IMG/VR virus record: IMGVR_UViG_2693429508_000001
Span: 1-4,887 of that record
Reading direction: 5' to 3' (one strand)
DNA: 4,887 nucleotides
Origin: a virus
Taxonomy: Duplodnaviria; Heunggongvirae; Uroviricota; Caudoviricetes
The notes beneath the pieces are model-generated. The model ran no database searches. It was not told the DNA's origin and was given only the letters and a program-made list of their open reading frames with translations. Each line of letters begins with the position of its first letter. Position 1 is the first letter of the stretch. This document shows positions 1 to 4,887 of this stretch, in pieces. The translations under genes were made by a program, and so were the position numbers.

Positions 1-34
1 CCTCAAAAACACCATCATACACTAAATCAGTAAG

Positions 35-63
35 TTGGCAGCATCACCAAAATTGGTTATGCT
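35..63 (+). promoter_or_regulatory. Possible late promoter (pR'-like): TTGGCA, 17-nt spacer, TATGCT, upstream of the lysis cassette
   Basis: -35-like TTGGCA at 35-40 and -10-like TATGCT at 58-63 with a 17-nt spacer, placed where lambdoid phages carry pR'/qut ahead of S. Motif match only; no Q gene is visible in the window. Confidence 0.25.
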
Positions 64-93
64 GTTAAGAGTGGTTACTTCGTCACACAGCTT

Positions 94-126
94 AAACCCG
101 CCGTCGAGCGGGTTTTTCCATTTTTT
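94..126 (+). terminator. Intrinsic terminator hairpin in the late leader (tR'-like)
   Basis: Perfect 8-bp GC-rich stem AAACCCGC (94-101) / GCGGGTTT (108-115) with loop CGTCGA, followed by TT-CCA-TTTTTT (116-126). It lies about 110 bp upstream of the holin start, as expected for a Q-antiterminated late leader. Confidence 0.45.
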
Positions 127-238
127 GAGTCTCGATATTAGCTGATAACCCAATACCTGAGTTATTCACTGACTCCGAGTCTGTTACGTTTCGTAGTATT
201 CCCTCAATTTACACCCGCTTTGTCTGCGAGGTGGGGTT

Positions 239-454
239 ATGAAATCCATGGATAAGTTAACAACGGGTGTCGCCTATGGCACCTCAGCAGGTAGTGCCGG
301 GTACTGGTTTTTACAGCTGCTAGATAAAGTCACGCCCTCACAGTGGGCGGCAATTGGAGTGCTGGGTAGCCTGGTATTTGGCCTGCTGACGTACCTGACA
401 AACCTTTATTTCAAGATTAAAGAAGATAAGCGCAAGGCTGCGAGAGGTGGATAA
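239..454 (+). CDS. S: Class II holin / pinholin (phage 21 S-like) with dual-start motif
   Basis: 71-aa ORF starting MKSMDK (Met1 at 239, Met4 at 248), the dual-start arrangement that gives antiholin and holin in S21-type pinholins. It has a Gly/Ala/Ser-rich first transmembrane segment ([16 protein letters not shown]), a second hydrophobic segment ([18 protein letters not shown]) and a basic C-terminus. GAGGTGGGG Shine-Dalgarno at 225-235. Stop TAA at 452-454 overlaps the next start. Confidence 0.9.
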
Positions 455-951
455 TGCCTCCATCATTACGAAAAGCTGTTGCTGCTGCTATTGGTGGCGG
501 GGCTATTGCTATAGCATCTGTGTTAATCACTGGCCCAGGTGGTAACGATGGTCTGGAAGGTGTGAGACATAATCCTTACAAAGAAATAGTTGGTGTATGG
601 ACTGTATGTTACGGGCATACAGGAAAAGACATCATTCCCGGTAAAACGTATACCGAAGCAGAGTGCAAAGCCCTCCTGAATAAAGACCTTGCCACTGTCG
701 CCAGACAAATTAACCCGTACATCAAAGTCGATATACCGGAAACAACGCGCGGCGCTCTTTACTCGTTCGTCTACAACGTGGGTGCTGGCAATTTCAGAAC
801 ATCGACGCTTCTTCGCAAAATAAACCAGGGTGATATTAAAGGCGCATGTGATCAGCTACGGCGCTGGACATACGCTGGCGGTAATCAATGGAAAGGACTG
901 ATGACTCGCCGTGAGATTGAGCGTGAAGTCTGTTTGTGGGGGAAACAATGA
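454..951 (+). CDS. R: SAR endolysin (T4-lysozyme-like muramidase with N-terminal signal-anchor-release domain; R21 / RrrD-like)
   Basis: 165-aa ORF whose ATG overlaps the holin stop (TAATG). The N-terminus [21 protein letters not shown] is a weakly hydrophobic Gly/Ala-rich SAR segment. It is followed by a lysozyme-like core with Glu35 and Thr50 in the E-8-X-5-T spacing and conserved blocks [18 protein letters not shown] and [10 protein letters not shown]. Classic pinholin plus SAR-endolysin pairing. Confidence 0.9.
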
Positions 952-1406
952 GCAGAGTAACCGCGATTATCTCCGCTCTGGTTATCTGCATCATCGTCCG
1001 CCTGTCATTGGCTGTTAATCATTACCGTGATAACGCAATCGCCTACAAAGAGCAGCGCGATAACAAGGCCAGTGAACTGGAGAAGGCGAACGCCACCATC
1101 GCTGACATGCGGAAGCGTCAACGTGATGTAGCAGAACTCGACGCAAGATACATAAAGGAGCTTGCTGATGCTAACGCGACTATCGAAAGTCTCCGTGCTG
1201 ATGTTTCTGCTGGGCGTAAGCGCCTGCAAGTCGCCGCCACCTGTGCAAAGTCAACGACCGGAGCCAGCGGCATGGGCGATGGAGAAAGCCCAGGACTTAC
1301 AGCAGATGCTGAACTCAATTATTACCGTCTCCGAAGTGGAATCGACAAGATAACCGCGCAGGTTAACTACCTGCAGGAATACATCAGGACGCAATGCCTG
1401 AAATAA
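948..1406 (+). CDS. Rz: Rz i-spanin (inner-membrane spanin subunit)
   Basis: ATG at 948 overlaps the endolysin stop (ATGA at 948-951). The six-frame track's 936 start is a GTG extension and less likely. N-terminal transmembrane segment [14 protein letters not shown], coiled-coil-like charged middle, and a C-terminus LQEYIRTQC resembling lambda Rz. Third position in the lysis cassette. Confidence 0.85.
1168..1353 (+). CDS. Rz1: Rz1 o-spanin lipoprotein, embedded in the +1 frame of Rz
   Basis: ORF wholly inside Rz in another frame. AAGGAG at 1155-1160 sits 7 nt upstream of ATG 1168. Signal peptide [19 protein letters not shown] with lipobox-like VSAC (Cys21), then a proline-rich mature region [16 protein letters not shown] typical of Rz1. 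The track's 1162 start is TTG; ATG 1168 is preferred. Confidence 0.7.
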
Positions 1407-1436
1407 TTTTTTTGCAAATCACAAAGTCCATTTAAT

Positions 1437-1460
1437 GAGCCTCGCGATGCGGGGCTTTTT
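1437..1460 (+). terminator. Intrinsic terminator downstream of Rz
   Basis: Stem GCCTCGC (1439-1445) / GCGGGGC (1449-1455) with one U-G wobble, loop GAT, followed by TTTTT (1456-1460). Begins 31 nt after the Rz stop. Confidence 0.5.
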
Positions 1461-1467
1461 GCAATAA

Positions 1468-1492
1468 ATGCGTACCGCAACGCATGTTTTTT
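1468..1492 (+). terminator. Second tandem intrinsic terminator
   Basis: Perfect 6-bp stem ATGCGT (1468-1473) / ACGCAT (1480-1485), loop ACCGCA, then G plus TTTTTT (1487-1492). Confidence 0.45.
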
Positions 1493-1607
1493 ACACCGAA
1501 CCTGCCCCTTTGGAATGGGCCTTTGAGGATACCAGTTAGTGCTGGCGAGCCTCGGTGGGCTGGTTTCCTGTGCGGCAAAGGTTCATTTCAAAGAGTAGGT
1601 ACACGCT

Positions 1608-2105
1608 ATGAAATCATTAACCCTCTTCAATCAACCAATTCGTATCGGTGAAGATGGCATGATCTGCCTCACTGATATGTGGAAAGCCAGTGGTAAAAGT
1701 GAATCTGAATCGCCTTACCACTACCTGCGAAACAAGCAGACCAAAGAGTTCTTAGCCGAGCTGGAGAAAAACCACGAATCTGTGGTTTTTACTGAGCGCG
1801 GTGTACACGGTGGAACATATGGCGGGAAGTTTGTTGCTTACGATTATGCGGCTTGGTTAAACCCCGGGTTCAAGTACGCGGCCTATAAAGTCCTCGATGA
1901 CTACTTCACCGGAGAACTTCAGCATCGCAACAGCTTAAGTGCGCAGCTCAACATGAAATGTCATGAATTTGACCAGAAGAAAGACATGGCGAGCTTCTGC
2001 GGACAAGGGCTGGCAGCATGGCGCTATACGAAGCCAGTGTTGGTCGCTGAGATTAACTCCCTGGCTAACCAGCTGCAGATTACGATCCCCGGGCTTCCGG
2101 GATGA
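1608..2105 (+). CDS. KilA-N-domain protein (APSES-like DNA-binding fold; putative antirepressor / regulator)
   Basis: 165-aa ORF. The N-terminal 100 residues carry KilA-N-type blocks as I recall the family: MICLTDMWKASGK, YLRNKQTKEFLAEL, GGTYGGKFVAYDYAAWLNPGFKYAAY. The C-terminal 60 aa have no recognisable motif. Weak Shine-Dalgarno (AGAGTAGG). The stop overlaps the next ORF. Confidence 0.65.
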   Translation: MKSLTLFNQPIRIGEDGMICLTDMWKASGKSESESPYHYLRNKQTKEFLAELEKNHESVVFTERGVHGGTYGGKFVAYDYAAWLNPGFKYAAYKVLDDYFTGELQHRNSLSAQLNMKCHEFDQKKDMASFCGQGLAAWRYTKPVLVAEINSLANQLQITIPGLPG

Positions 2106-2359
2106 GTGATCATGTTATTGAATGCGCCTCCAGAGCGGGGCGCGACTTCTCAGAGTTCATGAAAGGCGAGAAGGGCATGATGGAAGCATTGGCCTCGGTG
2201 GATGAGTTTGGCGAGCAGCTGCGCCTCAACGGCTGTGTCAATCATCACTTTGTTAGCTACATGATGCGGAACTCGATCATGCAGGCATTCATGGACATGG
2301 CAAAAGCCGAGAGGAAAGAAGAGCGCCGGCGTAAGCGAGCGGAAGCAAAAGCGAAGTAG
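2102..2359 (+). CDS. Hypothetical 85-aa protein with Lys/Arg-rich C-terminal tail, translationally coupled to the KilA-N gene
   Basis: ATG 2102 overlaps the TGA of the upstream ORF (ATGA). The 85 codons are not interrupted. C-terminus KAERKEERRRKRAEAKAK is strongly basic. No recognisable family; internal Met codons (M20, M26/27) are alternative starts. Confidence 0.45.
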   Translation: MSDHVIECASRAGRDFSEFMKGEKGMMEALASVDEFGEQLRLNGCVNHHFVSYMMRNSIMQAFMDMAKAERKEERRRKRAEAKAK

Positions 2360-2583
2360 CCATTACAAAGCCCATTTACGGGTGGGCTTGATAATGAAAC
2401 CGGAATTTATTCTGGGCCACCAGTTAACGGCAGTACCACGAAACAACCCAAGCCAGTAAGTGGGGAAATAACACCGGCAGCCACTGAAAGATGAACCTCC
2501 TGCCTTATGGCAAAAAAGATTCTTTGTGGTGGCGGACTGATGGAAAGACATCCCAATTTCAGCCAAACATTGAAGGAGTTGTT

Positions 2584-2655
2584 ATGTCAGCAGAAGGTTT
2601 CAATAACCCATCAAAATTCCGGGATGAGTGGGATAGCAGCGTAAAGAGTAAGTGA
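2584..2655 (+). CDS. Candidate micro-ORF (23 aa, MSAEGFNNPSKFRDEWDSSVKSK) with strong Shine-Dalgarno; in-frame upstream ATG at 2491 would give 54 aa
   Basis: Consensus AAGGAG at 2573-2578 sits 5 nt upstream of ATG 2584. The ORF ends at TGA 2653-2655, immediately before the hairpin motif. Below the six-frame track's length cut-off. No homology recognised. Confidence 0.25.
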   Translation: MSAEGFNNPSKFRDEWDSSVKSK

Positions 2656-2656
2656 T

Positions 2657-2784
2657 GCCATCACAAAAGCCATTCCCTACAGAGTGGCTTTGATAATGGC
2701 TTATACCCTACACGGGATAACTTAACTGATATCCCTTTTAAAGGATAAAGGTATTCAAGCCTGACACATCATGCGCTGTATCGT
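2657..2784. repeat. 128-bp segment, copy 1 of a near-identical direct repeat (copy 2 at 3391-3518); begins with a 9-bp-stem hairpin
   Basis: 2657-2784 and 3391-3518 differ at only about 3 positions, all within the hairpin arm and loop. Copy 1 is cut off by the IS2 end at 2785; copy 2 continues into the pre-cos sequence. Confidence 0.9.
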
Positions 2785-3057
2785 TAGACTGGCCCCCTGA
2801 ATCTCCAGACAACCAGTATCACTTAAATAAGTGATAGTCTTAATACTAGTTTTTAGACTAGTCATTGGAGTACAGATGATTGATGTCTTAGGGCCGGAGA
2901 AACGCAGACGGCGTACCACACAGGAAAAGATCGCAATTGTTCAGCAGAGCTTTGAACCGGGGATGACGGTCTCCCTCGTTGCCCGGCAACATGGTGTAGC
3001 AGCCAGCCAGTTATTTCTCTGGCGTAAGCAATACCAGGAAGGAAGTCTTACTGCTGT
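2785..3057 (+). mobile_element. IS2 (IS3 family) left end: terminal inverted repeat plus 5' part of orfA, truncated by the N gap
   Basis: Sequence from 2785, TAGACTGGCCCCCTGAATCTCCAGACAACCAGTATCACTTAAATAAGTGATAGTCTTAATACTAGTTTTTAGACTAGTCATTGGAG, matches the IS2 left terminus as I recall it, followed by the InsC reading frame. Only the left 273 bp of the element are present. Confidence 0.85.
2876..3057 (+). CDS. insC: IS2 transposase OrfA (InsC), N-terminal 60 codons; 3' end lost in the assembly gap
   Basis: Translation [60 protein letters not shown] is the recognisable IS2 InsC N-terminus with its helix-turn-helix. GGAG sits 5 nt upstream of ATG 2876. The track's 2831 start is an artefactual upstream extension. 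Confidence 0.85.
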
Positions 3058-3088
3058 NNNNNNNNNNNNNNNNNNNNNNNNNNNNNNN
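3058..3088. other. Run of 31 N: assembly or scaffold gap
   Basis: 31 consecutive ambiguous bases. Sequence before the gap is IS2; sequence after it is the 3' end of an Rz-like gene. The junction is not biological sequence. Confidence 0.95.
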
Positions 3089-3190
3089 GTTGCTGGACGA
3101 AACGTTCTCGGTATCCGGGACGGAATTATCCGCGACCAAACAGCACTGAGAACGCTTCAGGAATACATCAGGACGCAATGCCTTCGATGA
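3089..3190 (+). pseudogene. 3' fragment (33 codons) of a second, divergent Rz-like spanin gene
   Basis: Translation ends [11 protein letters not shown]-stop against [11 protein letters not shown]-stop for the intact Rz at 948-1406. The last 30 nt are near-identical to 1370-1399, but upstream residues and downstream DNA differ, so this is a different allele or locus copy. Confidence 0.6.
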
Positions 3191-3364
3191 TAGCGATAAT
3201 TTTACTCATCATCCTTCACATCTGGCTCTGTAGACAGGGTGGTGCTCACTTCTGGAGTGAATCCAGATTAAACATCTCATTGCTGATGCTTGATATTGAG
3301 CATTTTGCGCGCGGTAAGGGGCTGCGTTGAGATAAGAGCCAGTCATTACAAATACCAGGATTTA

Positions 3365-3387
3365 GCCTCGCATTCGCGGGGCTTTTT
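3365..3387 (+). terminator. Intrinsic terminator, paralogous to the one at 1437-1460
   Basis: Same stem GCCTCGC (3365-3371) / GCGGGGC (3376-3382) with loop ATTC, followed by TTTTT (3383-3387). Confidence 0.5.
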
Positions 3388-3390
3388 ATT

Positions 3391-3518
3391 GCCATTACAA
3401 AAGCCACTTCCTACAGAGTGGCTTTGATAATGGCTTATACCCTACACGGGATAACTTAACTGATATCCCTTTTAAAGGATAAAGGTATTCAAGCCTGACA
3501 CATCATGCGCTGTATCGT
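3391..3518. repeat. 128-bp segment, copy 2 of the direct repeat; perfect 9-bp hairpin AAAGCCACT / AGTGGCTTT at 3400-3425
   Basis: Near-identical to 2657-2784. Here it continues uninterrupted into the pre-cos segment (CGCCGTATTCCC...). Confidence 0.9.
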
Positions 3519-3812
3519 CGCCGTATTCCCGTATTAACCATGACCGTAGCCCGACGGGGAACTCCTTCTGCGCGAGTGTGCGGGAATAATCAAAAACGAT
3601 GCACACCGGGTTTTTACCGCGTTTATGGTTCGCGGGTTTGTCCCTCATGCTCGCCAGTCCTGTGCGGGGGTGGAAGAAACAGGACACTTACACTGATTCT
3701 TGTGGGTACGATGCTATTCCTTTCTGGATTATCCCGATGTCATTCATGCAGGGCGCTGTATCAGACGTTCGTCATGGCTGTCAGGCTGACGGGTCCTCCC
3801 GGTGGGGTGGCC

Positions 3813-3835
3813 TGCCACGGGGCGGGAGCGGCGCG
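3813..3835. promoter_or_regulatory. Possible degenerate cos-like site, about 185 bp upstream of the terminase small subunit
   Basis: CACGGGGCGGGAGCGGCGCGG resembles the lambda end junction ACG-GGGCGGCGACCT-CGCGG as I recall it, and is followed by an AT-rich stretch with TTCGTCATCAC (3862) and TTCATCACTAAC (3939) elements at a cosB-like distance. The exact GGGCGGCGACCT 12-mer is not present. Confidence 0.25.
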
Positions 3836-4005
3836 GAAAAAGGCTAGTTTTTGAAATTTCATTCGTCATCACCACTACTGTAATGGATTGATATTACAGT
3901 GGTTTTATTTTTATGGTGTCGATTTTGATTGTTTTTTGTTCATCACTAACACCGTTTGCCTAAAGTTGTTCGCAAGATGCATGTTTAAAACATTCTGGAG
4001 CGGGT

Positions 4006-4500
4006 ATGGATCGAGAGTTAAAAAATCTGACGCTGAATATCAGTCAACTGGCGGCACTGTCAGGTGTACATCGCCAGACTGCTGCGGCAAGGCTGCAAAA
4101 TCTACCCGTTGCAGGGGGGCATGAAAGCAACCTCAAGCTTTATCGGGTGGTTGATATTGTGTCGGCATTTCTGGCATTACCACCGCCGGTTGCAGAAGGC
4201 GAAATGGACGCGCATGAGCGCAAAGCCTGGTATCAGTCTGAACGTGAGCGTCTTAAGTTCGAACAGGAAACGGCACAACTCATTCCGGCCAGTGATGTCA
4301 GACGGGAGTTTGCCATCTGGGCAAAAGCGGTCGTGCAGGTGCTGGAGACATTACCGGATATTCTTGAACGTGACTGCGGTCTGCAGCCTGCCGCTGTGAG
4401 CCGTGTTCAGTCCATTATTGATGATCTGCGCGATCAGATAGCCCTGCGGGTGACTGAAGCAGGTGCGGATGATGAGGAGGAATTACAGCAGGAGGAGTAA
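4006..4500 (+). CDS. Terminase small subunit (Nu1-like DNA-packaging protein)
   Basis: 164-aa ORF with GGAG 5 nt upstream of the ATG. N-terminal helix-turn-helix-like LNISQLAALSGVHRQTAAARL and the pattern PVxxGG...Y...V parallel lambda Nu1 residues 5-50. Acidic C-terminus. The stop overlaps the start of a gpA-like ORF (TAATG). Confidence 0.8.
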   Translation: MDRELKNLTLNISQLAALSGVHRQTAAARLQNLPVAGGHESNLKLYRVVDIVSAFLALPPPVAEGEMDAHERKAWYQSERERLKFEQETAQLIPASDVRREFAIWAKAVVQVLETLPDILERDCGLQPAAVSRVQSIIDDLRDQIALRVTEAGADDEEELQQEE

Positions 4501-4865
4501 TGCTGAATCAGGAAACCGCAAAGGCAGCACGAACCGATTCAGGTTATATCCTTCGCGCACCGAGACGAATGCGGGTTGCTGATGCCGTTGCTCAGTATAT
4601 GCGGGTGCCCATGGGGGCAGGGAACTCAGTCCCGTGGGATCCGCTGGTGGCACCGTATGTTATTGAGCCGATGAACTGCCTGGCCTCGCGTGAATACGAC
4701 GCAGTGATATTTGTTGGCCCGGCACGAACCGGCAAGACTATCGGCCTGATTGACGGCTGGGTGATTTACAACGTGATTTGCGATCCTGCTGATATGCTGA
4801 TTATTCAGATGACGGAGGAAAAAGCCCGCGAACACTCCAAAAAACGACTCGCCAGAATGAGGTAG
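4500..4865 (+). pseudogene. Terminase large subunit (gpA family) N-terminal 121 codons, ending at an in-frame TAG
   Basis: Translation aligns by eye with lambda gpA residues about 30-135 (window PYVIEPMNCLA against lambda PFQRAIMNAMG; window VGPARTGKTIGLIDGWVIY against lambda VKSARVGYSKMLLGVYAYF). Intact gpA proteins are about 640 aa. A TAG at 4863-4865 ends the frame, and the frame stays open for the 7 remaining codons before the window edge. Confidence 0.65.
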
Positions 4866-4887
4866 CCTGAGTTTAACGGACACTCCT

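Follow-up and report, generated by a model that had tools for sequence, protein, structure and literature searches.

A non-coding RNA element with a covarying, predicted three-domain fold, carried 3' of the lysis genes by most lambda-like phages and prophages of Escherichia coli

Does the DNA between the lysis and packaging genes of lambda-like phages hold small genes, a packaging site or something else? The question was raised by positions 3519-3812 of a 4,887-nucleotide stretch (IMG/VR record IMGVR_UViG_2693429508_000001, positions 1 to 4,887; hereafter, the window), which is the late region of a lambdoid prophage. A first-pass annotation had described this segment, from its letters and a list of open reading frames (ORFs), as GC-rich pre-cos DNA conserved with lambda and likely to be a non-coding structured element. 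We found that positions 3507-3686 are one copy of a non-coding folded RNA element of about 180 bases, which is carried by most lambda-like phages and prophages of E. coli. The whole element lies on the + strand, comprises three domains and was delimited by the limits of homology between phages and by a covariance model; on the window, model R1 matched 3505-3692 (216 bits, E 7.5e-56).

The similarity to lambda stated in the first-pass annotation proved to be real and far above chance. With blastn, window 3523-3613 matched lambda NC_001416 46885-46974 at 85.9% identity (E 4e-18), and in the MAFFT and covariance-model alignments the homology reached 46867-47040. The match is flanked in lambda by bor (46459-46752, minus strand) and lambdap78 (47042-47575, minus strand) with no feature annotated beneath it, in agreement with its description as the unannotated interval between bor and the next ORF. 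The lambda counterpart shares 3507-3613 and 3655-3686 with the window, the part in between (window ~3614-3654) being replaced by a different, shorter middle, and nothing past 3686 is common to the two. Hence, the extent of 3519-3812 was wrong: the conserved unit is 3507-3686, and 3687-3812 has no lambda counterpart. The 2-nt indel said to break any shared frame was present after ATGCACAC(C/A)GGG, together with an extra 1-nt gap in AATAAT(C/T)-AAAAC. According to the composition profile, the label "GC-rich" held only for positions 3750-3849 (67% G+C), the element itself having 53-55%.

Seven helices, P1 to P7, were derived from RNAalifold and inspection. Domain 1 (3512-3602, +) is predicted to form a 91-nt rod made up of P1 (3512-3518/3596-3602, 7 bp), P2 (3524-3534/3578-3588 plus 3537-3538/3576-3577, 11+2 bp), P3 (3545-3549/3568-3572) and P4 (3550-3552/3557-3559), with an internal loop of 5 nt on one side and 7 nt on the other between P1 and P2. 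For this domain alone, the consensus fold was identical to the minimum-free-energy fold (-31.0 kcal/mol). Domain 2 (3608-3644, +), in which P5 (3608-3610/3642-3644) encloses the hairpin P6 (3617-3621/3631-3635), is highly variable in sequence with its pairing kept, and is replaced or shortened in lambda-type phages. The fold is completed by the hairpin P7 (3657-3663/3679-3685; span 3657-3685, +), which has a variable stem and a loop carrying the invariant GGAAGAAA (3672-3679), where GAAGAA (3673-3678) is the longest invariant unpaired block. P2 contains and extends the inverted repeat noticed at the outset, TATTCCCG at 3524-3531 and CGGGAATA at 3581-3588, which is exact. Since an 8-nt inverted repeat within 200-300 nt is close to chance level, the significance of the fold rests on covariation and not on the repeat.

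Pair counts over the aligned homologs came out in favor of a structure, with compensatory pairs above shuffles and pairing above slid controls, which ranged over 33-63% in all. In the MAFFT alignment of 23 sequences, from which the covariance model was built, 95.2% of the pair cells were standard pairs, compared with 34-62% when the 3' partners were slid by 1-3 columns, and 14 pairs had changed on both sides, compared with 5.6 +/- 1.6 in shuffles (0/500). With 31 distinct sequences, 96.0% were paired and 19 compensatory pairs were counted (6.2 in shuffles). The set of 72 distinct sequences, which includes variants from a metagenome scan, was 95.4% paired (33-60% when slid) and gave 17 compensatory pairs compared with 8.0 in shuffles (0/500). 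The covariance model found exactly one full match per late region in 35 of 35, and two matches in five metagenome contigs.

The changes were spread over several helices. Five pairs of P2 showed compensatory changes among the 72 sequences, one of them occurring as C-G in 43, U-G in 15 and G-C in 12, and another as C-G in 64, U-A in 5 and A-U in 1; the repeat TATTCCCG/CGGGAATA becomes TATCATCG/CAATGATA in Salmonella phage S107 and TATTTCCG/CGGAAATA in the gut-metagenome contig L198. In P6, with 92.9% of its cells paired, compensatory changes affected 4 of 5 pairs, as in the variants CCGCG/CGCGG, CTCAT/ATGGG, CAGC/GCTG and CTGTG/CGCAG, and in P7 they affected 7 of 7, one pair being G-C in 45 sequences and U-A in 12. 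The P4 hairpin was cleanly deleted as a whole unit in Stx2_EH0337 and P14437. Furthermore, the two strands were not equivalent: G.U cells numbered 94 and A.C cells 17, and pairing was 95.2% on the + strand versus 86.9% on the - strand. This large excess of G.U over A.C places the folded RNA on the + strand, which is the sense strand of the late operon. Taken together, the comparative evidence shows that 3507-3686 behaves as a structured RNA module on the late-operon strand, self-contained and multi-domain.

Beyond pairing, the sequence itself was conserved in a very uneven manner. Little or no variation was seen in the blocks ATTAAC, TCTGCG.GAGTGT and ATAAT.AA.AACGAT.CA.AC.GGG or in GGAAGAA of the P7 loop, and in the sequences that keep these blocks the P6 loop and the linkers of domain 2 are saturated with substitutions. 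Invariant blocks beside saturated loops point to recognition by a protein or another nucleic acid, beyond the mere presence of a stable hairpin. Three further pairings were considered and none showed covariation: GCGAG/CTCGC, which is used by the single-sequence fold; CACCGG/CCGGTG, which competes with P7; and a kissing interaction of the P7 loop with the P3/P4 bulge. Additionally, GTGTGC (3576-3581), in the 3' strand of P2, can pair with GCACAC (3601-3606) past P1. This pairing would compete with P1 and P2, its arms are both nearly invariant, and it is a candidate conformational switch.

The element was found to be non-coding. Three ORFs overlap it mechanically, at 3540-3854 (+), 3599-3847 (+) and 3472-3687 (-), and they are artefacts, as had been suspected, because none of their frames is open across the homologs. 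In a 24-sequence alignment, variable sites were distributed 44/39/39 over the codon phases and the indels were 1, 2, 8, 10 and 16 nt long. On each strand, two frames contain conserved or near-conserved stops and the third, which is the source of the long ORFs of the window, is interrupted in many homologs. No conserved protein frame, which would have contradicted the earlier description, was found on either strand. The absence of a shared frame, of codon periodicity (no third-position bias) and of triplet indels, together with the covariation in several helices, bore out the proposal that conservation here acts at the nucleic-acid level and concerns a structure. A leader peptide of 10 codons from 3505 was also considered and rejected, its start codon being missing or its frame stopped in lambda-type and S107 sequences.

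How widely, and in which position, is the element carried? About 440 phage records contain it, among them lambda and its laboratory relatives, many Shiga toxin (Stx) converting phages of types Stx1 and Stx2, BP-4795, mEp460-type phages and S107. It was present in 4635 of 5426 complete E. coli genomes (85%), the number of places per genome being 2 at the median and 11 at most, and a RefSeq feature lay beneath it in 1 of 40 E. coli matches sampled across the ranking. In Escherichia and Shigella the majority of lambdoid phages and prophages carry it, and so do at least one phage of Salmonella and one genome of Raoultella; there is usually one copy per late region, sometimes two. The copy of E. 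coli K-12 lies in prophage DLP12, in the 290-bp gap between borD and ybcV. Domain 1 is the part retained in lambda, DLP12 and iss plasmids; the plasmid copies sampled held the first half of the element only, and the one inspected, at an iss locus, was left over from a phage Rz-bor segment. P7 alone is kept in mEp460_ev081, and part of the element is lost in Perceval.

In every case inspected, the element lay 3' of the lysis cassette, either directly or past a moron. It begins 17 nt past Rz in BP-4795, Sakai Sp9 and Stx2_499, and the morons found between the lysis genes and the element were bor, a KilA-N gene with an 85-codon ORF, and a small ORF. Neither the upstream flanks nor the sequences past P7 are related from one phage to another, and the downstream neighbors are equally diverse (lambdap78, opposite-strand ybcV/ylcI-like genes, a TonB-like fragment, an HNH gene, or directly the small terminase subunit gene, terS). 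At least five kinds of packaging module stand beside it (lambda Nu1/A, 933W-type, HNH plus HK97-like, DUF1441-type and others), and the distance to terS ranges from ~106 nt to 1.65 kb, with genes between. As the element follows the lysis genes across varied packaging modules and distances, it is part of the lysis module, at its 3' side, and not of cos. The pre-cos or packaging framing of the first-pass annotation consequently fails; neither a fixed place by cosN nor a single terminase type was found among the loci inspected.

The searches for more distant carriers added little. The Raoultella variant, used as a query against the phage collection, retrieved no further genera. A pattern scan of viral contigs gave 29 loci, all due to chance, with 0 aligned to the element, and the 42 matches in a scan of species-representative genomes were mostly lambda DNA contamination, genuine loci being limited to a few from Escherichia, E. 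albertii and Raoultella. Some 30 assemblies from unrelated bacteria, including Pseudomonas, Cohnella, Flavobacterium, Vibrio and various metagenome-assembled genomes, have contigs of ~3.5 kb or ~48 kb with a segment identical or nearly identical to that of lambda, almost certainly contaminating lambda control DNA. Two complete copies, 0.95-1.8 kb apart, were observed in the gut-metagenome contigs L198, L110, L112, L129 and L158, where they flank an inserted ORF of ~200 codons between Rz and terS; in L198 (10204-10390 and 11154-11340), domain 1 is 100% identical between the copies and domain 2 and P7 differ.

No transcription signals of its own were detected in the element. The window scan revealed no promoter-like or terminator-like site inside it, terminator-like sites being limited to 3364-3383 and 3874-3903, and a -10-like (G/A)ATAAT had no usable -35. 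It therefore has neither the promoter nor the Rho-independent terminator of an Hfq-dependent small RNA gene. A search of the whole window against Rfam 15 gave nothing in 3507-3686 at E <= 1, and with lax filters 3495-3700 gave only microRNA and long non-coding RNA noise (E 0.31-3.4); the models of AgvB, AsxR, STnc100, IsrK, DicF, Sok and ribozymes did not match the element. Identity with the known small RNAs of lambdoid phages (PreS/LPR1, LPR2, 6S, svsR, AgvB/AsxR, Pas, STnc100) was excluded by locus: AgvB and AsxR come from the pR' moron site, PreS, LPR2 and 6S from the early left operon and the pR' leader, svsR from the 3' end of cI, and the Pas small RNAs from near Q and the holin gene. More generally, the prophage small RNAs (AgvB/AsxR, StxS, PreS/LPR2/6S, svsR, Pas, DicF, IsrK) resemble the element in being non-coding, in occurring in the same phages and, for some, in being processed from operon transcripts, but they lie at other loci, and the element is longer and has no terminator.

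The table of Hfq contacts in enterohemorrhagic E. coli (EHEC), obtained by cross-linking and analysis of cDNA, lists no peak on the Sp9 element copy, the one copy positioned against it, after correction of the published coordinates, which at this locus differ from NC_002695.2 by +137 bp as estimated from a single landmark. Because these lysogens do not express the late operon, the missing peak is weak evidence. EcOnc10-12, located just past Rz in Sakai prophages, were considered as the element and rejected, since after the 137-bp correction they lie on the opposite strand, 15-60 nt beyond it, and cover the terminator CTGCTGTGACTCCAACACGGCAGTTTTTTT of the convergent ylcI-like gene. In Sp9, these abundant Hfq-bound RNAs, EcOnc10, 11 and 12 (Tree et al., 2014), represent the terminator and the 3'-terminal part of a ylcI/DUF3950-like gene (locus L090, 6140-6215). 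Full-text literature searches, which extended to the borD-ybcV gap, lambda late-transcript maps and lambdoid boundary sequences, retrieved no description of the element; subscription journals were thinly covered and an older description is possible.

What could an RNA in this position do? Judging from its location and from the absent transcription signals, the element would be synthesized within the Q-antiterminated late transcript, as an inner part of it. In that transcript it may be a cis-acting signal for processing or stability, placed where the mRNA of the lysis genes passes into the long stretch, untranslated or bearing morons, ahead of the packaging genes. The rod formed by P1, the internal loop and P2 would be the substrate of an endonuclease, in the manner of the RNase III sites of T7. 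Once cut, the upstream lysis message would end in a protective 3' hairpin, and its fate would no longer be tied to that of the long, largely untranslated stretch toward the packaging genes. The invariant unpaired bases would be recognized by a protein or another RNA.

The predicted geometry is compatible with this role. A coaxial duplex of about two helical turns that contains an internal loop is characteristic of RNase III sites, and the element offers P1 with 7 bp, a loop of 5/7 nt and P2 with 11+2 bp. Cleavage at the RNase III signals of phage mRNAs leaves a 3' hairpin that stabilizes the upstream message, and the known lambda sites are located elsewhere than the element. These signals (T7 R1.1-type; lambda sib and N-leader) are alike in being irregular rods with two stems of ~10 bp and an asymmetric internal loop, placed between cistrons of a long phage transcript without a promoter or terminator of their own. 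They differ in that they have no sequence similarity to the element, which adds two domains and invariant unpaired bases not required of an RNase III site; the likeness is one of predicted geometry. Repetitive extragenic palindromic (REP)-type and stabilizer hairpins are likewise structured untranslated segments past a cistron that could block 3'-to-5' decay; nevertheless, REP elements are short, simple palindromes of the chromosome without a multi-domain architecture or invariant loops.

Our analysis leads to graded expectations for these roles. A processing or stability signal acting in cis within the late mRNA is, taken on its own, a tentative proposal. That the element does more than stabilize passively, representing a new sequence-specific functional RNA family that serves as a dedicated regulator of lysis/packaging balance or timing (a protein-binding, ligand-sensing or RNA-sensing switch) or as a processed RNA acting on the host, seems plausible without being probable. 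The full explanation, that of a structured late-operon RNA, forming a segment of the Q-antiterminated transcript, with a processing or stability role in cis and with 3687-3812 as a separate spacer, has in our estimation about an even chance of being correct.

Several observations weigh against this account. The single-sequence stability of 3507-3690 was no better than that of shuffles (z = -0.20 on the + strand and +0.29 on the - strand), and the fold of lowest free energy for the full length (-60.8 to -61.3 kcal/mol) is not the consensus one (-53.1 kcal/mol). The diversity of the sequences is modest, mostly Escherichia with 73-97% identity, and their close kinship means that the compensatory events are few and phylogenetically clustered; moreover, two of the alignments (A5 and A6) were fitted to the covariance model. 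Lambda and DLP12 have no recognizable domain 2. Regarding function, RNase III needs no invariant loop sequence, so a simple cleavage site does not explain the strong sequence conservation, and lambda lysis cassettes function on plasmids without the element region, which is thus not needed for lysis as such. Finally, we infer every step of the mechanism that goes beyond a structured RNA on the + strand.

The same invariant single-stranded bases could serve a stable RNA acting in trans. Either the whole element or a part, for example domain 1 or P7, would be cut from the late transcript or made from a weak promoter of its own, and would act through AAUCAAAAAC and GGAAGAAA on host or phage mRNAs or proteins. 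Such an RNA would account for the invariant unpaired bases beside freely varying loops, for a self-contained unit with unrelated flanks on both sides and for its persistence in DLP12 and other defective prophages as well as in 85% of the E. coli genomes, and processed small RNAs are known from other lambdoid regions (PreS, LPR2 and 6S; StxS; AgvB/AsxR). However, a conserved promoter and a Rho-independent terminator are both absent, no target was identified, and the lack of a catalogued Hfq peak on the Sp9 copy points, weakly, in the same direction. We regard a role in trans as unlikely.

A role at the DNA level was also considered, in which the element would be a patch of shared homology at the lysis/packaging boundary for the exchange of modules and morons, with the RNA fold being incidental. 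Conserved boundary "linker" sequences between lambdoid modules are an idea from comparative phage genomics and were proposed to act as DNA homology only. The element resembles them as a short conserved block with unrelated modules on both sides, at mosaic junctions and at a moron insertion site. Homology between phages begins or ends at its edges, it is internally mosaic (the different lambda middle, the part lost in Perceval, P7 alone in mEp460_ev081), and in several contigs two copies with 100% identical domain 1 flank an inserted ORF. Temperate phages exchange DNA with defective prophages via relaxed homologous recombination (PMC3945230), which is also in its favor. Nevertheless, a homology patch needs no pairing, and the element has 17-19 compensatory pairs above the shuffled and slid controls, a ratio of G.U to A.C cells of 94 to 17 on one strand, and a hairpin that some phages have cleanly deleted whole; selection for "recombinability" would, besides, be a weak, group-level force. 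The suggestion of a recombination hotspot in the first-pass annotation hence fits the mosaic pattern and leaves unexplained the compensatory changes and the G.U asymmetry, an RNA-type covariation with strand bias that sets the element apart from the boundary linkers. As the principal reason for its conservation, recombination appears rather improbable to us.

The compensatory changes and the tolerance of G.T would also fit a folded DNA strand, that is, a hairpin signal in the + strand as single-stranded DNA, for priming or primosome assembly in late rolling-circle replication or as a recombination substrate, and rod-like hairpins of ~100 nt are typical of single-strand initiation signals. Yet G.T pairs are far less favorable in DNA, no independent evidence was found, and the element follows the lysis genes and not ori or cos, so that this explanation is very improbable. 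An extension of cosQ or cosB, suggested by the end of the element 295 nt before the genome end (~3980 in the window), has hardly any likelihood, given that the at least five unrelated terminase and packaging modules, at ~106 nt to 1.65 kb from terS, include headful-type ones and that fragments of the element survive at plasmid iss loci without cos.

The small-gene explanation is the least credible of all. It draws on the coding sequences annotated over the element in some phage records and on the PHROG matches (phrog_6954, E 3.7e-60, for ORF C87 of Stx2 II, "Rz-like spanin"; phrog_17397, E 1.5e-50, for window 3599-3847), and runs against the closed, indel-shifted frames of the homologs, the lack of a third-position excess, the absence of Pfam matches to ORFs over the element, and annotators who contradict each other in strand and frame (a + ORF further downstream in Ayreon, two - ORFs in 569R4, the + "Rz-like spanin" ORF in Stx2 II). 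The 82-codon ORF 3599-3847 was found in 21 protein clusters among 5.8 billion proteins, all from Escherichia or Shigella, of 46-129 aa and mostly covering a third to half of the query. Such few clusters of inconsistent length, with the DNA present in >4600 genomes, have the pattern of sporadic ORF calls on conserved non-coding DNA, and the two PHROG families are built from calls of this kind, their matches only reflecting ORF calls in close relatives.

The structured RNA on the + strand has consequences beyond the window. Lambda is among the best-mapped genomes, and its right arm from bor to cos, treated as dispensable filler, holds a covarying RNA structure that is common to Stx-converting phages, cryptic K-12 prophages and the iss loci of virulence plasmids. 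If the proposed role were true, there would be an extra post-transcriptional control point in the late operon, whose transcript also carries Shiga toxin and lysis genes. The spurious "Rz-like spanin" and "hypothetical protein" calls over the element should be removed from phage records and PHROGs, and the element provides a clean single-copy marker of the lysis/packaging boundary for the analysis of prophage mosaicism.

The DNA that follows the element, 3687-3980 (+), was treated as a separate, lineage-specific pre-cos spacer, as judged from the phage records: seven of them cover it, and both 3687-3812 and its continuation to 3980 are common only to mEp460-type phages. It holds the G+C-rich stretch at 3750-3849 (67%) and, at 3874-3903, a hairpin with a T run that resembles a terminator. 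The linear records of Ayreon and mEp460_ev081 both stop at the base that aligns with 3980, which places cosN at ~3980/3981. Over the spacer, mEp460_ev081 is ~78-85% identical, with 1-nt and 3-nt indels and an internal duplication; across 3690-3850, its substitutions fall 9/14/8 by codon phase, and a 1-nt indel is found near 3745. Relative to the window, Ayreon has an insertion of ~140 bp, which holds a "putative late gene regulator" ORF (L001, 2872-3156). Residues 8-66 of this ORF match a Q-antiterminator family and residues 64-87 small-terminase families, and from these matches it seems to be pieced together from fragments of genes and to be no real regulator.

The rest of the window is arranged as a lambdoid late region, for which the nearest complete phages are mEp460, Ayreon and vB_EcoS-569R4 (96-97% across 3340-4010). 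A phage-21-type holin gene (239-454), an endolysin gene (454-951), an Rz gene (948-1406) and a KilA-N/ORF11CD3 gene (1608-2105) are followed by an insertion-sequence orfA fragment (2876-3056; product matching HTH_Tnp_1, 1.4e-16) and an N run. Past cos, the first gene is the terminase small subunit gene of DUF1441 type (4006-4500, +; Pfam DUF1441, 2.7e-41), whose counterpart in vB_EcoS-569R4 is annotated as such, and a gpA-type large terminase gene starts at 4500. Between the N run and the element, the end of a second Rz allele is overlapped by a 50-codon ORF (3178-3330), the N-terminal half of which is hydrophobic. This ORF is kept as phrog_11822 (E 1.8e-36), carries an annotation in Ayreon, in 569R4 and in several E. 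coli genomes, and had no Pfam match. Downstream of it, and outside the element, an intrinsic-terminator-like hairpin with a T run lies at 3364-3383 (+), where the Ayreon record has an annotated terminator at the equivalent place. In Rfam, STnc560, an Hfq-binding RNA of Salmonella, gave a weak match over its full length (3262-3453; 19.9 bits against a threshold of 55, E 0.53), which spans the end of this ORF, the terminator and the next hairpin and could be a distant small RNA derived from a 3' untranslated region, or chance.

Repeats and insertion sequences have shaped the window as well. A 129-nt direct repeat (98%) links 2656-2784 with 3390-3518, comprising a "pre-element" segment (3390-3506, +; repeated at 2656-2770), which has a hairpin at ~3385-3427 and is not conserved in lambda, BP-4795 or Stx2 II, and a truncated second copy of the element, made up of its first 14 nt (2771-2784, +). 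This copy includes the 5' strand of P1 and is cut right after it by an insertion sequence that starts TAGACTGG at 2785 and that looks like IS2. An IS2-family transposase was also observed ~300 bp from the element remnant at the plasmid iss locus (L091). After the N run, 3058-3190 is the 3' end of the second, different Rz allele, and the last 29 nt of both Rz genes form a direct repeat (1371-1399/3155-3183). The second allele indicates that the window joins two late regions, from two prophages or across a scaffold gap at a copy of the insertion sequence. Both window ends (1-48 and ~4860-4887) look like insertion-sequence termini, the left one presumably an IS1 inverted repeat and the right one presumably an IS3-family end, which cuts off the large terminase gene past its first 121 codons. 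These ends and an ORF product 100% identical to one of Shigella flexneri suggest a defective Shigella prophage riddled with insertion sequences. Additionally, three related long hairpins, CCATTACAAA(A)GCC...GGCTTTGATAATGG, were observed at ~2360-2400, 2656-2700 and 3384-3427, past successive late-region cassettes; one of them gave a spurious microRNA match in Rfam, and they may be terminators at moron boundaries or repeats.

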